Source: a virus. From it: a DNA stretch of 5,120 nucleotides. The notes below the pieces were generated by a model, which worked only from the letters and a program-made list of their open reading frames with translations, searched no databases and was not told the origin of the DNA. Below, piece by piece: positions 1 through 5,120 of this stretch (the stretch's first letter is position 1; every line of letters starts with the position of its first letter). A program made the position numbers and the translations under genes. The stretch is taken from positions 1 to 5,120 of IMG/VR virus record IMGVR_UViG_3300045988_017695; one strand, written 5' to 3'.

Positions 1-2
1 AT

Positions 3-719
3 GTGCCTGTCACGTACTATTCTGAAAATGATGACGGTGAAGCTCGTTCTGGTTTGACGCTTCGCGCTCGTGATCTTCAGCTTTTTATGAAACGTTTGAG
101 AAAGGAACATTCTAATGAGCGTTTACGCTTCTTTGCCTGTGGCGAGTATGGCTCTACTACTTATCGCCCTCATTATCACGCAATTATTTTTGGACTCACT
201 CTCAACGATCTGCGACCCTACAAACGTAGCCCCCAAAACTATGATTATTTCATTAGTGATTCTCTTACTAAGTGTTGGGGTCTCGGCTATGTTGTGGTAG
301 GTGCCGTGACATGGGAGACTTGCGCATATACTGCCCGATATATTATGAAGAAAGCCCTTGGTGAAGGTGCTGAGGTATATGAGCGTTTTAACATTGAGCC
401 TGAATTTGTGCGTATGTCTCGTAAGCCTGGTATTGCATATCAGTATTACGTTGATCATCCTGACTTGTATCAGTATGAATATATCAATCTTCCGACTGAT
501 AAAGGTCAGTTGAAATTTCGCCCGCCTCGGTATTATGACCGGCTTTTTGATCTCGATAATCCCGATCAGATGGCTAAGATAAAGGCCAAGCGTCAGCATG
601 CTGCTCTGGTAGATGCTCACAACAAGTCCCTGCAAACGTCCCTTATTGAGCCTGACCGTCTGGCAGTTGAAGAGGCTGCTTTGATGGCTCGCATAAAATC
701 TCTTGAAAGGAAGTTGTAA
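3..719 (+). CDS. VP4: Replication initiation protein VP4 (superfamily I rolling-circle Rep, phiX174 gpA-like), C-terminal 238 codons. The 5' part is at 4819..5065 and joins in frame across the circular junction; full length about 321 aa.
   Basis: Long + ORF. HUH motif PHYHAIIFG (His-Tyr-His codons at 171-179). Two-tyrosine catalytic motif AYTARYIMKKA (Tyr codons 327-329 and 339-341), diagnostic of Microviridae Rep. Frame is continuous with the ORF at the window end, because 5066-5120 equals 1-55. Confidence 0.9.
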   Translation: MPVTYYSENDDGEARSGLTLRARDLQLFMKRLRKEHSNERLRFFACGEYGSTTYRPHYHAIIFGLTLNDLRPYKRSPQNYDYFISDSLTKCWGLGYVVVGAVTWETCAYTARYIMKKALGEGAEVYERFNIEPEFVRMSRKPGIAYQYYVDHPDLYQYEYINLPTDKGQLKFRPPRYYDRLFDLDNPDQMAKIKAKRQHAALVDAHNKSLQTSLIEPDRLAVEEAALMARIKSLERKL

Positions 720-721
720 AA

Positions 722-835
722 ATGCGCAAGAAGACTAAGCCTATTTTGGACAACAAAATTTTTCGTCGCACCGCTGCTCACAGCAAGAAGATCAACATCG
801 ACCCTAAAATTTTTCGTGGAGGTATTAGACTGTGA
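722..835 (+). CDS. Small, highly basic DNA-binding/packaging peptide (gokushovirus VP8-like, functional analogue of phiX174 J), 37 aa: MRKKTKPILDNKIFRRTAAHSKKINIDPKIFRGGIRL
   Basis: ATG at 722 sits 2 nt after the VP4 stop (717-719) and is preceded by a purine-rich AAGGAAG stretch. The 37-aa product has 10 K/R against 2 D. Its size and position right after rep match microvirus J/VP8 peptides. It is absent from the ORF track only because it is short. TGA stop at 833-835. Confidence 0.55.
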   Translation: MRKKTKPILDNKIFRRTAAHSKKINIDPKIFRGGIRL

Positions 836-862
836 TTATTTGTGATTCTCCTGTTCTTGTTT

Positions 863-891
863 TTGATGATGATGTTTGGCCTTGTTATGAA
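863..891 (+). promoter_or_regulatory. Weak candidate promoter: TTGATG (863-868), 17-nt spacer, extended -10 TGtTATGAA (883-891), upstream of the 83-aa ORF
   Basis: Hexamer spacing of 17 nt with a TG extended -10 element. The -10 hexamer matches only 4 of 6, so this is weak. Confidence 0.2.
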
Positions 892-906
892 AGTGAGGAA
901 AATTGA

Positions 907-1158
907 ATGAAACTTGGACTTTATTCTATTAAGGACGCCAAAACCGGCTTTATGACCCCTGTGCTTGAGCAGGGCGACCCCGCTGCTCTTCGTAACTTCG
1001 CGCATGCTGTGAATCAGCCTGATTCTATCATGCATGATTGTCCCAATGATTTTTCCCTTTTCAAGGTTGCGAACTTCGATACCGATAAAGGTATCGATCC
1101 CGTGATCAGTCCTATTCTCATCGCTGATGCTTCGGAGGTGCTGCGCAATGAAAGATAA
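907..1158 (+). CDS. Hypothetical small acidic protein, 83 aa; by position a candidate VP5-like or accessory protein
   Basis: ATG at 907 lies 7 nt downstream of GAGGA (895-899). The ORF is in the genome's coding orientation. It is not a +1 overprint of another gene. TAA stop at 1156-1158 overlaps the start region of the next gene. Confidence 0.55.
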   Translation: MKLGLYSIKDAKTGFMTPVLEQGDPAALRNFAHAVNQPDSIMHDCPNDFSLFKVANFDTDKGIDPVISPILIADASEVLRNER

Positions 1159-1348
1159 GCTTATCTCTATTTTTGTCGCTTTTGTCCGTAAGACTTTTAC
1201 TAAGGAGCGTCTTCTCGATTTTATCGATGATCTCCTTGATATCTTCTATGACCGTTTTGCCGCTCCTTACGGTTGTGTTGACGGACGGTTTGTTGATCAG
1301 GAAGATGCTTTTGCTGATTTGAAGGAGGCTTGTGATAAAGATGTTTGA
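1148..1348 (+). CDS. Hypothetical small acidic protein, 66 aa (MKDKLISIFVAFVRKTFTKERLLDFIDDLLDIFYDRFAAPYGCVDGRFVDQEDAFADLKEACDKDV)
   Basis: ATG at 1148 is 7 nt after the strong SD GGAGGTG (1134-1140) and overlaps the upstream stop (ATGAAAGATAA), indicating translational coupling. The track's ATG at 1127 lies upstream of the SD and is less likely. The TGA stop (1346-1348) overlaps the VP3 start as ATGTTTGA. Confidence 0.5.
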   Translation: MKDKLISIFVAFVRKTFTKERLLDFIDDLLDIFYDRFAAPYGCVDGRFVDQEDAFADLKEACDKDV

Positions 1349-1832
1349 TACCCAGTATACTCCGCATAATCGCATCGCCGCTAATCCTGGTTCACCCGTT
1401 AAGGTGCTTTACGGCGGTAAGTATGACGCGAACGGTCGTGTTATTCTTGAGAAGAAAGGTGAAGAGAATCTGTATGACTATATCCAGTCTTTTCGCGATT
1501 CGGTTGATCTCAACGTTATCCTCGCCCGCTTCTCCAATGGTGACGTGGAAGCCCTTAATAAGGCTCAAGGCTTTTATGCAGATGTGTCCGATTTTCCTAA
1601 GAATATGGCCGATGCGCTTAATCGTATCAATCAGGCCGAAGAGATGTTTAAGGCTCTTCCGCTTGAGATTCGCCAGAAGTTTGACTGTTCTTTTGAGCAG
1701 TTTTTAGCTCAGTCTGGTACTGATGATTGGTTGTCTAAGATGGGCTTTGAAAGCTCTGCGCCGGTAGAGTCCGAGACCCCATCTGTGAAGGTTGAGCCTG
1801 ATGTTGTAAAGGAGATCAAGAATGAATCGTAA
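1341..1832 (+). CDS. VP3: VP3-like internal scaffolding protein, 163 aa (MFDTQYTPHNRIAANPGSPVKVLYGG...)
   Basis: A 150-170 aa ORF directly upstream of and overlapping the major capsid gene, as in gokushoviruses. ATG at 1341 is preceded by GAAGGAGG (1321-1328). The track's GTG at 1332 lies only 3 nt from that SD and is unlikely. TAA stop at 1830-1832 overlaps the VP1 start. Confidence 0.55.
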   Translation: MFDTQYTPHNRIAANPGSPVKVLYGGKYDANGRVILEKKGEENLYDYIQSFRDSVDLNVILARFSNGDVEALNKAQGFYADVSDFPKNMADALNRINQAEEMFKALPLEIRQKFDCSFEQFLAQSGTDDWLSKMGFESSAPVESETPSVKVEPDVVKEIKNES

Positions 1833-3510
1833 TGTTGAATCGCATTTTGCGCTGAATCCCACTCGCATTGATATGTCTCGTTCGACGTTTGATCGTTCGT
1901 CTTCTGTCAAGACCTCTTTCAATGTCGGTGATATTGTCCCTTTCTTCCTCGAAGAGGTTCTTCCCGGCGATACGTTCAATGTACGTACTTCGAAAGTTGT
2001 GCGTATGCAGACTCTGCTTACACCGATGATGGACAATGTTTACCTTGATTCGTATTTTTTCTTTGTTCCTAACCGGCTTGTTTGGAATCACTGGAAGGAG
2101 TTTAACGGTGAAAACACTGAAAGCGCGTGGATACCCACTACTGAGTATTCTGTACCTCAGATTACTTCGCCTTCCGCTGGTTGGTCTGTTGGTACTCTTG
2201 CTGATTATTTCGGCTTGCCTACAGGTGTTGGCGGTCTGAGCGTGTCCGCTCTTCCGTTCCGTGCGTATGCTCTCGTTATGAACGAGTGGTTCCGCGATCA
2301 GAATTTGCAAGATCCGCTCGTTGTTCCGGTTGATGATGCTACTGTTGCCGGTGTGAATACTGGTAACTTTGTTACCGATTGTGCTAAAGGCGGTTTGCCT
2401 TATATCGCTGCCAAGTATCACGACTATTTCACGAGCTGTCTCCCCAGCCCGCAGAAAGGCCCTGATGTTACGTTAAAGGTTGCTTCTCAGGATGATTTGC
2501 CGGTTGTTACAAAAGCGGTTGATTCTCCTTCATCTTCTTTTGCTGAGGGTCTCCGTCTTGGTGTTCTTGGTTCTTCTAATTGGTCTGAAAATGGCGGTTC
2601 TACTGTTCTTGGTATGAATGGTACTTTTACTGGTACTCGACCTGGTTTTGTTACTGATACTTCCGGTATTTCCGGTGGTTCGCTTGGTAATTGGGCTGTT
2701 GCTCCGTCTAACCTTTGGGCTATCAATTCTGGCAATGCTGTTGTTGCTACCATTAACCAACTTCGTATGGCATTCCAGATTCAAAAGCTTTATGAGCGTG
2801 ATGCGCGTGGCGGTACTCGTTATATTGAGGTGCTCAAATCTCATTTCGGTGTGACTTCTCCTGATGCTCGCTTGCAGCGTCCCGAGTATCTCGGTGGTAA
2901 TCGTGTGCCGATCAACGTTAACCAAGTCATTCAGCAGTCCGGTACCGGTGCCGGTGCTGATACTCCGCAGGGTACTGTTGTCGGTATGTCTCAGACTACG
3001 GACTCTAACCATGATTTTATTAAGTCCTTTACTGAGCACGGTTATATCATCGGTGTTATGGTTGCTCGCTATGATCATACCTATCAGCAGGGTATTGAGC
3101 GTCATTGGTCTCGTAAGACGCGCTTTGATTACTATTGGCCGGTCTTTGCTAACATTGGCGAGCAGGCTGTGCTTAATAAGGAAATTTTTGCGCAGGGTAC
3201 CGCAAAGGACAATGAAGTTTTTGGCTATCAAGAAGCTTGGTCTGATTATCGTTATAAGCCTAATCGCGTAACTGGTGAAATGCGTTCTGCTTATGAACTG
3301 TCTCTTGATGTTTGGCATTTGGCGGACGATTATGAGAGTCTTCCGTCACTGTCTGATAGTTGGATTCGTGAGGATAAGAATACTGTTGATCGTGTTCTTG
3401 CTGTCAAGTCTTCTGTGTCTGACCAGCTTTTTGCTGATATCTATGTTTCTAACCGCGCTACACGTCCGATGCCGCTGTATTCCGTCCCCGGCCTTATTGA
3501 CCATCACTAA
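1822..3510 (+). CDS. VP1: Major capsid protein VP1 (Microviridae F-protein family), 562 aa
   Basis: The N-terminus (MNRNVESHFALNPTRIDMSRSTFDRSSSVKTSFNVGDIVPFFLEEVLPGDTF) matches the conserved gokushovirus VP1 signature (RSTFDRSH..KTTFNAG.L.P...EVLPGDTF). Also present are the conserved INQLRMAFQIQKLYERDARGGTRYIE block and FFFVPNRLVW. SD GGAG (1811-1814) precedes ATG 1822. Confidence 0.95.
   Translation: MNRNVESHFALNPTRIDMSRSTFDRSSSVKTSFNVGDIVPFFLEEVLPGDTFNVRTSKVVRMQTLLTPMMDNVYLDSYFFFVPNRLVWNHWKEFNGENTESAWIPTTEYSVPQITSPSAGWSVGTLADYFGLPTGVGGLSVSALPFRAYALVMNEWFRDQNLQDPLVVPVDDATVAGVNTGNFVTDCAKGGLPYIAAKYHDYFTSCLPSPQKGPDVTLKVASQDDLPVVTKAVDSPSSSFAEGLRLGVLGSSNWSENGGSTVLGMNGTFTGTRPGFVTDTSGISGGSLGNWAVAPSNLWAINSGNAVVATINQLRMAFQIQKLYERDARGGTRYIEVLKSHFGVTSPDARLQRPEYLGGNRVPINVNQVIQQSGTGAGADTPQGTVVGMSQTTDSNHDFIKSFTEHGYIIGVMVARYDHTYQQGIERHWSRKTRFDYYWPVFANIGEQAVLNKEIFAQGTAKDNEVFGYQEAWSDYRYKPNRVTGEMRSAYELSLDVWHLADDYESLPSLSDSWIREDKNTVDRVLAVKSSVSDQLFADIYVSNRATRPMPLYSVPGLIDHH
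2455..2750 (+). other. Ser/Gly/Thr-rich hypervariable insertion loop of VP1 (threefold 'mushroom' protrusion region)
   Basis: The stretch KGPDVTLKVASQDD...SSNWSENGGSTVLGMNGTFTGTRPGFVTDTSGISGGSLGNWAVAPSNLWAINSGNAVVAT is low-complexity and G/S/T/N-rich. It is flanked by conserved capsid blocks and sits where the gokushovirus VP1 variable loop is expected. Confidence 0.6.
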
Positions 3511-3523
3511 ATATCATGCTGTA

Positions 3524-3551
3524 GTGGGGGGCAGTTGCCCCCCACTTTTTT
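3524..3551 (+). terminator. Rho-independent terminator between VP1 and VP2: stem GTGGGGGGC (3524-3532), loop AGTT, stem GCCCCCCAC (3537-3545), then TTTTTT (3546-3551)
   Basis: A perfect 9-bp G/C-rich stem, a 4-nt loop and a T6 run lie 14 nt after the VP1 stop. This resembles the partial terminators after the capsid genes of phiX174. Confidence 0.55.
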
Positions 3552-3565
3552 GAAAGGAGTTTTAC

Positions 3566-4417
3566 ATGTCTTATTTTTCCGAGGCTTTGAATACTGGTGC
3601 GAATCAGATCGCACAAATGCAGGGTATTGCTCAAGCAAATAATGCTTGGTCTGCTGGACAGGCTCAAATACAGCGCGAATGGCAGGAACAGCAGAATGCT
3701 AAGGCTATGGCTTTTAATCAGAGCGAGGCCGCTAAGAATCGTAACTGGCAGGAAATGCTATCAAATACTGCTCATCAGCGTGAAGTGCGTGATCTTATGG
3801 CTGCTGGTCTTAATCCTGTTTTGTCAGCTATGAATGGCAATGGTGCTTCCGTTGGCTCTGGTGCTACTGCTCAAGGTGTTACTTCTCAAGGTGCTAAAGG
3901 TGAAACGGATACTTCCGCTAATGGTGCTATTGCTAATCTACTTGGGTCTATTCTTTCTGCTCAGACTCAAATAGAGGCCGCTAATATCAACGCTAAGACA
4001 CAGGAAGCCGTTGCTGATAAGTATACTGCTATGGAAAGAATTGTTTCTGAGATCGCCGCCAGTGCCTCCCGTTATGGTGCTGATACGAGCGCGTCTGCTT
4101 CTCGTTATCATTCTGATCGTAGTTATGAGGCCTCCCGTTATGGTTCCGACCGTTCGGCTGCTGCTTCTATGTTTGGTTCGTCTTTGGCTTCCTCTGCGTC
4201 TCGTTATGCGTCTGATCAGGCCGCGGCTGCTTCTCGTTACGGTTCTGATATGTCCTATAAGCAGCTTAATGATTTTGGACGTGGTGAAACTTCGTCTTTG
4301 ATCGGCATGATTGCTAATCGTTTACCCGGTATCCTTGATGCTGCTAATAAGCGTACTGGTTTCTTTGGTACTAAGAAGTTTGGTAAAGATAAAAATCGTG
4401 TTGGCGGTTTTAGGTGA
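3566..4417 (+). CDS. VP2: Minor capsid / DNA pilot protein VP2, 283 aa
   Basis: SD AAGGAG (3554-3559) lies 6 nt before the ATG. The N-terminal region ...EAAKNRNWQEMLSNTAHQREVRDLMAAGLNPVLS matches the conserved gokushovirus VP2 motif (QE.MSNTA.QR...D...AGLNP.L). The composition is Ala/Ser/Gln-rich, and the gene follows VP1. Confidence 0.85.
   Translation: MSYFSEALNTGANQIAQMQGIAQANNAWSAGQAQIQREWQEQQNAKAMAFNQSEAAKNRNWQEMLSNTAHQREVRDLMAAGLNPVLSAMNGNGASVGSGATAQGVTSQGAKGETDTSANGAIANLLGSILSAQTQIEAANINAKTQEAVADKYTAMERIVSEIAASASRYGADTSASASRYHSDRSYEASRYGSDRSAAASMFGSSLASSASRYASDQAAAASRYGSDMSYKQLNDFGRGETSSLIGMIANRLPGILDAANKRTGFFGTKKFGKDKNRVGGFR
4058..4255 (+). repeat. Six in-frame tandem 33-nt (11-aa) repeats inside VP2, consensus A-[AS]-A-S-R-Y-G-S-D-x-S
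   Basis: The six units are ASASRYGADTS, ASASRYHSDRS, YEASRYGSDRS, AAASMFGSSLA, SSASRYASDQA and AAASRYGSDMS. The nucleotide units differ by synonymous changes (for example tat/tac and gcc tcc/gct tct), so the repeat is old and conserved rather than recent. Confidence 0.85.
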
Positions 4418-4510
4418 GTTTTGATCTTGTCTTTGTGCATTTTGTCGGTTTTATCCGGTTGCCTGGTCAAGCGTTTTTTGTTTGAAATTAACAAAATTTC
4501 TTTTATAAAG

Positions 4511-4555
4511 GAAGCGAAGCGAGTCGCGCCCCTGCGCCAAGCTACGCTTCTTTTT
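4511..4555 (+). terminator. Terminator-like GC-rich hairpin downstream of VP2: arm GAAGCGAAGC (4511-4520) pairs with GCTACGCTTC (4541-4550) with 1 mismatch, inner GCGC/GCGC stem, then TTTTT (4551-4555)
   Basis: An imperfect inverted repeat followed by a T5 run lies about 95 nt after the VP2 stop. Confidence 0.4.
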
Positions 4556-4574
4556 GCACTCCTTGCCAAAATGG

Positions 4575-4596
4575 TATGCAGTCTCTTTTCTGCATA
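4575..4596. repeat. Small hairpin: TATGCAG (4575-4581), 8-nt loop, CTGCATA (4590-4596)
   Basis: A 7-bp perfect inverted repeat in the noncoding region. Confidence 0.35.
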
Positions 4597-4624
4597 AAAT
4601 CTCGGCTGCCGTATCGCATGCCGA

Positions 4625-4664
4625 ACTCGTGCCCATTACTCTTCTTGATGTAATGGGCACGAGT
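4625..4664. repeat. Perfect 15-bp inverted repeat (ACTCGTGCCCATTAC / GTAATGGGCACGAGT) with a 10-nt loop TCTTCTTGAT; candidate replication origin or primosome/packaging hairpin
   Basis: Arms are 4625-4639 and 4650-4664, the loop is 4640-4649. This is the longest perfect palindrome in the window. It lies in the 400-nt intergenic region about 155 nt upstream of rep. The loop contains CTTGAT. Confidence 0.8.
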
Positions 4665-4762
4665 GACACCAAGACACGCAAATTATCATTTACTACTTTA
4701 AAATAGCTATCTAAAATATACATATATCCTTGTATAAAATATTAAAACTAAAAAAAACTATA

Positions 4763-4791
4763 TTGACAAATATAAAATATTTTTTTATTAT
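4763..4791 (+). promoter_or_regulatory. Sigma70-type promoter for VP4: -35 TTGACA (4763-4768), 17-nt spacer, -10 TATTAT (4786-4791), embedded in a roughly 120-nt AT-rich tract (4685-4800) with an A8 run
   Basis: The -35 hexamer is consensus, the -10 matches 5 of 6 and the spacing is optimal. The predicted transcript start is about 4798-4800, just before the SD and GTG start of rep. Confidence 0.5.
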
Positions 4792-4803
4792 ATTAAATAT
4801 AAG

Positions 4804-4809
4804 TGAGGT
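4804..4809 (+). promoter_or_regulatory. Ribosome-binding site GAGGTG for VP4
   Basis: It lies 9 nt upstream of the in-frame GTG at 4819. The in-frame TGA at 4804-4806 closes the frame upstream, so GTG 4819 is the first possible start. Confidence 0.5.
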
Positions 4810-4818
4810 GTTTGCATT

Positions 4819-5120
4819 GTGTCTTGCTTTCATCCCATGTTGGCTGTCAGTACTGGCTTGAATTCTAACGGCAAGCGCGATATTAAATTCGTTTCTGGCC
4901 CCACTGAGTGGGAATCTTACCCGCCTAACGCCCGTCTCAAGATTCCTTGCGGTCGCTGTGTTGGTTGTCGTCTTGAGCGTTCCCGTCAATGGGCTAATCG
5001 CTGTATGCTTGAATTGCAGTACCATGAATCAAGTTATTTTGTTACGTTGACTTATGATGATGAGCATGTGCCTGTCACGTACTATTCTGAAAATGATGAC
5101 GGTGAAGCTCGTTCTGGTTT
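4819..5120 (+). CDS. VP4: Replication initiation protein VP4, N-terminal part (GTG start). It runs off the window end and continues at 3..719 (true junction after 5065).
   Basis: The translation MSCFHPMLAVSTGLNSNGKRDIKFVSGPTEWESYPPNARLKIPCGRCVGCRLERSRQWANRCMLELQYHESSYFVTLTYDDEH resembles conserved gokushovirus Rep N-termini (MACxHP..A). It carries a CxxCxxC motif (4948-4968) and RCR motif I FVTLTYDD (5038-5061). The ATG at 4837 is an alternative start but would drop the conserved SCFHP residues. Confidence 0.8.
   Translation, partial: MSCFHPMLAVSTGLNSNGKRDIKFVSGPTEWESYPPNARLKIPCGRCVGCRLERSRQWANRCMLELQYHESSYFVTLTYDDEHVPVTYYSENDDGEARSG
5066..5120. repeat. 55-nt terminal redundancy, an exact copy of 1..55, marking circular closure of a 5065-nt genome
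   Basis: Direct string identity. The repeat lies inside the rep coding sequence and preserves the reading frame. Confidence 0.95.

Follow-up and report, generated by a model that had tools for sequence, protein, structure and literature searches.

A complete circular gokushovirus genome from the human gut, with a covarying hairpin as candidate plus-strand origin and relatives that carry integration sites

We analysed 5,120 nucleotides (nt) of viral DNA, IMG/VR record IMGVR_UViG_3300045988_017695, positions 1 to 5,120 (hereafter referred to as the window), and found that they almost certainly represent one complete circular genome of 5,065 nt from a gokushovirus of the human gut (Microviridae, Gokushovirinae sensu lato). 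Its large noncoding region contains a hairpin (4625-4672) with a covarying stem, a loop of the form (T/A)CTTGAT and the 3′ flank TGACACCAA. We put forward, at about even odds, a two-part proposal. Its first part is that this hairpin is an undescribed plus-strand origin of gokushoviruses, in which the phiX174 origin core is presented in a hairpin and nicked by the replication protein VP4 (Rep) at CTTG|AT. Its second part is that a subset of the lineage carries, between the promoter and the start of Rep, a phage attachment site (attP) of the Xer type, such that integration cuts Rep from its promoter, the window being an attP-less, non-integrating form. The searchable literature, which did not extend to the older papers on Chp2, SpV4 and phiMH2K, gave no description of a gokushovirus origin hairpin or of an attP between the Rep promoter and start.

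The genome is circular and complete

Bases 1-55 of the window are identical to bases 5066-5120, the longest terminal overlap being 55 nt, and the repeating unit is thus 5,065 nt. Looking up the exact VP1 protein recovered a second contig from a human-gut metagenome in ENA (k127_81413, our L002; ERZ917826, run ERR1190620, project PRJEB12123; 5,192 nt). This contig has a 127-nt terminal direct repeat at a spacing of 5,065, and its unit matches that of the window at 5,065 of 5,065 positions, although it is opened at window position 3521, a break point different from that of the window. Two linearisations with different break points, and with overlaps of 55 and 127 nt, mean that the template is circular or head-to-tail and not linear with a terminal repeat. 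The name of the second contig gives k = 127, and 55 is presumably also a k-mer length used by assemblers; both overlaps are therefore plausible k-mer lengths. The 55-nt wrap-around is an assembly overlap of a circular template and no biological repeat, the linear contig probably having arisen when the assembler went once round the circle.

These results bear out a preliminary description of the window, which was made from its letters alone and had proposed a circular 5,065-nt unit with 55 nt of wrap-around. It had also stated correctly that the Rep open reading frame (ORF) runs in frame through the junction (...LTYDDEH|VPVTYYSENDDGEARSG...): the frame extends from the GTG at 4819 to 719 and encodes 321 amino acids (aa), with the junction His codon composed of base 5065 and bases 1-2. 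Seven ORFs and three short noncoding stretches make up the whole unit. The noncoding stretches are 4418-4818 (401 nt), 836-906 and 3511-3565, the first of which is the single large noncoding region that had been described.

The unit has the size expected of Microviridae and Gokushovirinae (small circular genomes of about 4.4-6 kb) and encodes a Phage_F-type VP1, a Chlamy_scaf VP3, a two-tyrosine HUH VP4, VP5, VP2 and a VP8/J-like protein. All core genes are present and, as had been noted, no host-derived flank accompanies them.

Three points weigh against this conclusion. The sequence alone cannot tell whether the molecule is single-stranded, packaged or monomeric; a single sequencing run may be the source of both assemblies, in which case their agreement tests the assembly and not the biology; and no lysis gene is identifiable in the window. 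The preliminary description had itself raised the possibility of a tandem copy: the template would then be a head-to-tail multimer, either a replicative concatemer or a product of rolling-circle amplification, with the overlap coming from tandem copies. A tandem repeat and a circle do yield the same k-length overlap in an assembler. We nevertheless regard a multimer as improbable: the 5,065-nt unit and its gene set correspond to one genome of the relatives (4.8-5.3 kb), multimers of microviruses themselves derive from a circular genome, and the genome described here would be the same either way. Identical ends would likewise be expected if the genome were linear and its 55-nt direct terminal repeat real, but this reading can be dismissed, as the identical sequence occurs in a second contig that is cut 3,520 nt away with a 127-nt overlap, a linear form would split the Rep ORF between its ends, and all relatives are deposited as circular.

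Four IMG/VR contigs (L010, L057, L050 and L106) exceed one unit and have imperfect end overlaps of 84-99% identity, as if two co-occurring strains had been assembled head to tail.

A covarying hairpin is a candidate plus-strand origin

The DNA fold of the hairpin 4625-4664 has a free energy of -18 kcal/mol (z -8.5). Two segments, TCTTGATGTAA (4643-4653) and, as the 3′ flank, TGACACCAA (4664-4672), were invariant in an alignment of five genomes, and in the four relatives from pig faeces the stem is altered on both sides while both segments are unaltered. We scanned IMG/VR with the pattern TCTTGATGTAA-N(8-20)-TGACACCAA and obtained 99 contigs, nearly all of 4-6 kb and nearly all with a gap of exactly 10 nt. 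Their 3′ arms are of 44 different kinds, and each is matched by a complementary 5′ arm. When the 59 distinct hairpins were compared over nine stem pairs, 91.9% of the cells were paired, as against 59.8% in shuffles (none of 500 shuffles reached the observed value), and 161 cells had changed on both sides, as against 53 in shuffles. Slid registers of the stem were paired in only 25-41%. We also used a relaxed pattern, CTTGAT-N13-17-TGACACCAA. Among the matches listed, a helix of at least 7 bp closed the CTTGAT loop in 76 of 92 microvirus-sized contigs, whereas larger contigs mostly had a helix of 5 bp or less.

The core of the phiX174 origin is CAACTTGATATTAATAACACTATAGACCAC, where, according to the RefSeq record, synthesis of the viral strand begins with the A of CTTG|AT. 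The window hairpin and the phiX174 origin share a distance of 15 nt from CTTGAT to a downstream GAC. On account of this agreement, we propose the hairpin as the plus-strand origin, with a predicted VP4 nick between G4647 and A4648 in the loop. The putative nicking enzyme has the motifs FVTLTY, HYHAIIF (the HUH motif; residues 140-146) and YTARYIMKK (the two-tyrosine motif; residues 192-200), which in an alignment correspond to FDTLTL, HFHAVHF and YVAKYVNKK in protein A of phiX174. By these motifs, VP4 is identified as a two-tyrosine HUH endonuclease similar to phiX174 protein A. VP4 drives rolling-circle replication, and its likeliest target is the hairpin 4625-4664, with the loop cut at CTTG|AT. 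Chp2 has a hairpin of the same design, CTAGCGTATAACAG-TCTACTTGAT-CTGTTATACGCTAG-GTGATAGCAA, with the loop TCTACTTGAT; in phiMH2K, no CTTGAT was found on the plus strand. In phiX174, by contrast with the window candidate, the origin is not part of a hairpin and is located within gene A.

Several considerations count against this assignment. The pattern used for collection fixed the loop and the flank, so that their invariance among the 99 contigs arises by construction, and only the five-genome alignment and the relaxed scan bear on it. The register of the 5′ arm was picked for maximal pairing, which inflates the paired fraction somewhat. Finally, the nick site is proposed by analogy: beyond CTTGAT, only 11 of the other 24 positions match phiX174, and some of these lie in the variable stem.

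The strongest competing interpretation, to which we give an appreciable but smaller likelihood of roughly one in three, is that the hairpin 4625-4664 serves as a priming site for the complementary strand, a packaging signal or a transcription terminator, and not as the site of the Rep nick. The intergenic hairpins of phiX174 and G4 prime the complementary strand, as has been discussed for other microvirus clades (PMC9865509), and the hairpin of the window lies just downstream of VP2. However, the stem is not followed by a run of T, which argues against an intrinsic terminator, and a separate conserved and structured block upstream is available for priming. Moreover, the stem can vary whereas the loop and the 3′ single-stranded flank stay constant, a pattern that fits recognition by a sequence-specific protein, and CTTGAT, the hexamer cleaved in phiX174, lies in the loop with the same spacing to GAC as there. 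Conserved hairpins with compensatory changes have been reported in other microvirus clades, with their role left open (PMC9865509, 2022). The origin proposed here is well defined and open to assay with purified Rep and an oligonucleotide.

The upstream block (4501-4590), which lies just upstream of the candidate origin hairpin, is almost invariant among the relatives, and its 23-nt core is present in 10 IMG/VR contigs. It is possibly the complementary-strand origin, and it is the best candidate for the place where the host would start this strand.

Matches to the TCTTGATGTAA/TGACACCAA pattern in large contigs (L040/L094, L081 and L085) had no hairpin and were treated as chance. An Rfam scan of the window (E<=1) showed no known RNA family and gave only a chance miRNA match, which fell on the hairpin. 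As a text string, the motif turned up in the literature only in primers.

Relatives are integrated in Oscillibacter, but the window lacks a recognisable site

A scan of species-representative genomes with VP1 identified five bacterial contigs containing relatives. In Oscillibacter sp. PC13 (L112, a 177-kb contig), the VP1 is 71% identical to that of the window and the gene order is VP4-J-VP5-VP3-VP1-VP2. This prophage is flanked by two copies of a 28-bp site, 5,225 nt apart (L112 5696-5723 and 10921-10948). The left copy, ATTGAACAAAA-TTTTTA-TTTTGTTCAAT, is a perfect 11+6+11 palindrome (ATTGAACAAAATTTTTATTTTGTTCAAT), and the right copy reads TCTAAACAAAA-GCCTTA-TTTTGTTCAAT. An Oscillibacter metagenome-assembled genome (MAG; L115, site 5860-5887), whose VP1 is 87% identical to that of the window, has a left junction identical to this one. 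About 150 nt downstream of the PC13 site begins a host gene on the minus strand (L112 4530-5543) for a 336-aa tyrosine recombinase with a Phage_integrase and a SAM-like domain; the other flank of the site carries a RadA-like gene. Enterobacterial gokushoviruses integrate by the dif/Xer route (PMC7062461), and the Oscillibacter prophage site resembles that route in that both involve a dif-like palindrome. The Oscillibacter and Clostridia relatives differ from Enterogokushovirus in that their 28-bp sequence is another one and lies beside a single tyrosine recombinase gene. As prophage hosts of microviruses, the abstract of a 2022 study names only Bacteroidales, Hyphomicrobiales and Enterobacteriaceae (PMC9753089).

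Similar sites are found in free genomes. One of 5,088 nt (L073), which has 78% nt identity to the window and the same conserved block and hairpin, carries the attP-like site ATTAAACAAAA-CGCTTA-TTTTGTTCAAT (about 2761-2788) between the -10 box and the Shine-Dalgarno (SD) sequence of VP4. Another (L006, KX513865) carries such a site at about 4650-4677, downstream of the promoter of Rep but ahead of its ribosome-binding site. To judge from these positions, integration at either site would part Rep from its promoter.

In the window, only 13 nt separate the -10 box from the SD, and the insert of roughly 75 nt seen in the attP-bearing relatives is absent. We searched the window for dif-type sites with four 28-mers and one 11-mer and found nothing above chance: the best matches to the Oscillibacter site, the L073 attP, the E. 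coli dif and the B. subtilis dif had 8-12 mismatches in 28, which is the chance level, and the match with 8 mismatches falls on the VP5 start. Nor was an integrated copy of this genome itself with left and right attachment sites (attL/attR) found, the copies in Oscillibacter being those of relatives with 71-87% VP1 identity.

Two further junctions with bacterial DNA were observed. In a contig whose VP4 is 91% identical to that of the window (L077 5040-8629), the sequence passes, immediately before the VP4 SD, into a bacterial gene for a 1,001-aa SLH-domain protein (55.6% G+C), and a 97-kb bacterial contig with a 99% identical SLH gene (L232 1-130) ends about 100 nt from the junction point. These features fit a real insertion hot spot, with an integrated close relative, but may also stem from an assembly chimera. 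In two other Clostridia/Christensenella MAG contigs (L111 and L114), the J-like gene is the first of the phage genes, and VP4 is the last of them in L114. The apparent break point is thus between VP4 and J and not in the large noncoding region, which implies a different integration site or a rearrangement.

Could the window then be a temperate gokushovirus in excised or replicating form, one that integrates via a host Xer-type tyrosine recombinase, as the enterobacterial ones do at dif? Such a lifestyle has a precedent (PMC7062461). The relatives within bacterial contigs speak for it, above all the PC13 prophage between its two sites beside the recombinase gene and the MAG with the same left junction, and so do the matching attP of L073 and the joining of L077 to the SLH-domain gene. 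We consider it unlikely nonetheless, as the window has no above-chance match to the Oscillibacter site, the L073 attP or either dif, and has 13 nt only where the relatives have a 28-bp site; the L077 junction, moreover, is without such a site and may be chimeric. Because the window, unlike some relatives, has no recognisable integration site, a purely lytic or otherwise non-integrating lifestyle is likelier. The genome most likely belongs to a lineage that gains and loses integration modules, being itself a member that does not integrate. The preliminary description, which held that the window is not a prophage, was thus right about this sequence, but the statement does not extend to the lineage: relatives are integrated in contigs of Oscillibacter and other Clostridia, and a related free genome has a matching attP. 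Oscillibacter/Oscillospiraceae is the best host lead, and one of value for gut gokushoviruses, for most of which no host is known.

Genes and expression signals

The features of the genome are listed in Table 1. All credible genes are on the plus strand, which is T-rich (33% T); the strand given is the mRNA-sense strand and presumably the packaged one too. We placed the start of VP4 at a GTG codon because it is preceded by the SD sequence GAGGTG (4805-4810) and because the N-terminus M-[SP]-C-[FY]-H-P is kept in relatives that start with ATG. Matches to Pfam and PHROGs back the gene list of the preliminary description for VP1, VP3, VP4 and VP2. Overlaps between the stop of one gene and the start of the next link VP5/ORFx, ORFx/VP3 and VP3/VP1.

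The 37-aa ORF downstream of VP4 probably encodes a VP8/J-like, small basic DNA-binding protein, as had been suggested, and is the weakest gene assignment of the set. It matches the J-like protein of phiMH2K at 5e-4 and, like that protein, ends in RGGIRL (RGGIRF in Chp2 ORF8); its identity among the relatives of the clade is 97%. The "two small ORFs" that had been noted both exist. One of them, however, is the known VP5 (Phage_ORF5), and only the other, ORFx, is without a family, having no match in Pfam or PHROGs. ORFx was called as a gene in k127_81413 and is open in 21 of 21 relatives, which fall into two allelic types with a common hydrophobic N-terminal helix and an acidic tail. We take it to be a real gene for a conserved small protein with no assigned function. 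The allelic types of ORFx do not track the flanking genes; in one comparison, VP5 was 95%, VP3 91% and ORFx 44% identical. In the Oscillibacter prophage, a gene for a Peptidase_M15_3 protein (L112 6879-7262) stands between the J-like gene and VP5, where the window has 71 noncoding nt only.

VP1 matches the solved gokushovirus capsids (PDB 8des_A, 1.8e-149; 9cgm_A, 5.9e-141). VP2 is 40% identical to phiMH2K VP2 and contains six consecutive 11-residue repeats. Protein H of phiX174 forms a tube built partly from 11-residue repeats, and by analogy the repeats of VP2 would fit a role as a pilot tube. Tandem Repeats Finder detected only two short arrays in the window, within VP1 and VP2, and the 11-aa repeat of VP2 is visible in the protein only. 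Among the seven ORFs, no match to spike (G) or external-scaffold (D) families was found in Pfam or PHROGs, and blastp of the ORFs against phiX174 D and B gave nothing, phiX174 G having been left out of the blastp set.

The sigma-70-type promoter in the large noncoding region, both hexamers of which are kept in the aligned relatives, would drive VP4, after which come VP8/J-like, VP5, ORFx, VP3, VP1 and VP2. The hairpin 3′ of VP1 (3523-3552), which resembles an intrinsic terminator, may act as a terminator or attenuator before VP2 and probably reduces VP2 expression. A minus-strand ORF (4451-4723, 90 aa), called as a gene in k127_81413, lies over the conserved hairpins, and in relatives it has indels (1 nt and 6 nt), including frame-breaking ones; it is probably no gene.

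Table 1. Positions of genes, signals and repeats in the 5,120-nt window
Feature	Position	Strand	Description and evidence
Wrap-around, copy 1	1..55	.	identical to 5066-5120; second assembly shows a 127-nt overlap elsewhere
VP4 (Rep), C-terminal part	1..719	+	321 aa in total; PF23343 REP_ORF2-G2P 5.9e-18, phrog_942 8.6e-125
VP8/J-like protein (predicted)	722..835	+	37 aa, 12 K/R, C-terminal RGGIRL; phrog_10695 2.9e-6
VP5	907..1158	+	83 aa; PF20577 Phage_ORF5 7.3e-23, phrog_1670
ORFx	1148..1348	+	66 aa; ATG 1148 after GGAGG, open from 1127; overlaps VP5 stop and VP3 start
VP3, internal scaffolding protein	1341..1832	+	163 aa; ATG 1341 (ORF open from GTG 1332); PF09675 Chlamy_scaf 5.9e-40; gene call in k127_81413
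VP1, major capsid protein	1822..3510	+	562 aa; PF02305 Phage_F 4.5e-167, phrog_514 1e-230
Intrinsic-terminator-like hairpin	3523..3552	+	between VP1 and VP2; 10 bp (8 G-C) + T6; DNA fold -12.3 kcal/mol, z -4.2
VP2, minor capsid/DNA pilot protein	3566..4417	+	283 aa; phrog_5158 6e-98, besides many PHROGs annotated "pilot protein for DNA ejection"
Six consecutive 11-residue repeats in VP2 (..ASRYGSD..)	4067..4264	+	residues 168-233; protein level
Noncoding block, almost invariant	4501..4590	+	about 90 nt; relatives otherwise about 75-88% identical; contains hairpin 4510-4550
Candidate (+)-strand origin	4625..4672	+	perfect 15-bp stem 4625-4639/4650-4664, loop TCTTCTTGAT; fold, conservation, covariation
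Sigma-70-type promoter	4763..4791	+	TTGACA-17 nt-TATTAT (11/12); 28 nt upstream of VP4 start
VP4 (Rep), N-terminal part	4819..5065	+	GTG start, MSCFHP..., continues at base 1
Wrap-around, copy 2	5066..5120	.	terminal identity

Placement among gokushoviruses

VP1 of the window matches 3,653 phage records, the best being gut Microviridae/Gokushovirus genomes, and is 90% identical to a VP1 from human faeces (OP971952). At the nucleotide level, the nearest deposited phage genome is Microviridae sp. isolate 2135-1801 from pig faeces (MG945333), with 88% identity over 71% of the genome; its VP1 is 85.9% identical to that of the window in amino acids, and it has the conserved noncoding block, the hairpin and the promoter in common with it. 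MG945333, together with MG945586, MG945407 and MG945570, has the order VP4-(J)-VP5-(ORFx)-VP3-VP1-VP2, as in the window. This group differs from the window in length (4,864-4,932 nt against 5,065) and is below the usual species line of 95% nt identity; in MG945333, ORFx is of the other allelic type and a promoter segment is duplicated, and after VP2 the window is longer by about 70 nt. Gut contigs of IMG/VR (L093, L015, L010, L008 and others, from 3300045988) are 86-90% identical in nucleotides over 90-99% of the genome, with the J-like protein 97% and VP4 91-96% identical to those of the window. None of them exceeds about 90% identity, and VP2 and ORFx diverge most. Overall, related free genomes cover 84-99% of the window.

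The genome is thus an ordinary species-level newcomer in the gut gokushovirus radiation, a very well-populated group. Adding one species to the thousands deposited changes little; its use lies in being a clean and complete reference genome for the clade by which free virions are linked to prophages of Oscillibacter.

The gene order of the window, VP4-J-VP5-ORFx-VP3-VP1-VP2, agrees with the order VP4-VP5-VP3-VP1-VP2 in five annotated relatives. The "gokushovirus gene order" of the preliminary description therefore holds for gut gokushoviruses, but it is not the order of Chp2 (VP1-VP2-VP3-ORF8-ORF4-ORF5) or phiMH2K, in both of which VP3 comes after VP2. The comparison with reference genomes that the description had called for showed VP1 to be 41-44% identical to those of Chp2, phiMH2K and SpV4. 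The Rep proteins of these three phages are 28-35% identical to VP4 of the window and have the same HUH and Y-x3-Y motifs; homology extends to VP3, VP5 and VP2, and RGGIR[LF] is the end of the J/ORF8-like protein, as in the window. The hosts of these classical Gokushovirinae are intracellular or wall-less bacteria.

The bullavirus phiX174 is also circular, replicates by the rolling circle and has a Rep with the motifs FxTLT, HUH and YxxxYxxK found in VP4 of the window. It differs in its D and B proteins, to which no ORF of the window has a match, and in its capsid protein F, for which the 23% identity to VP1 is that of a local match only. The Enterogokushovirus EC6098 group is a further gokushovirus with the content VP4-VP5-VP3-VP1-VP2-VP8 (PMC7062461).

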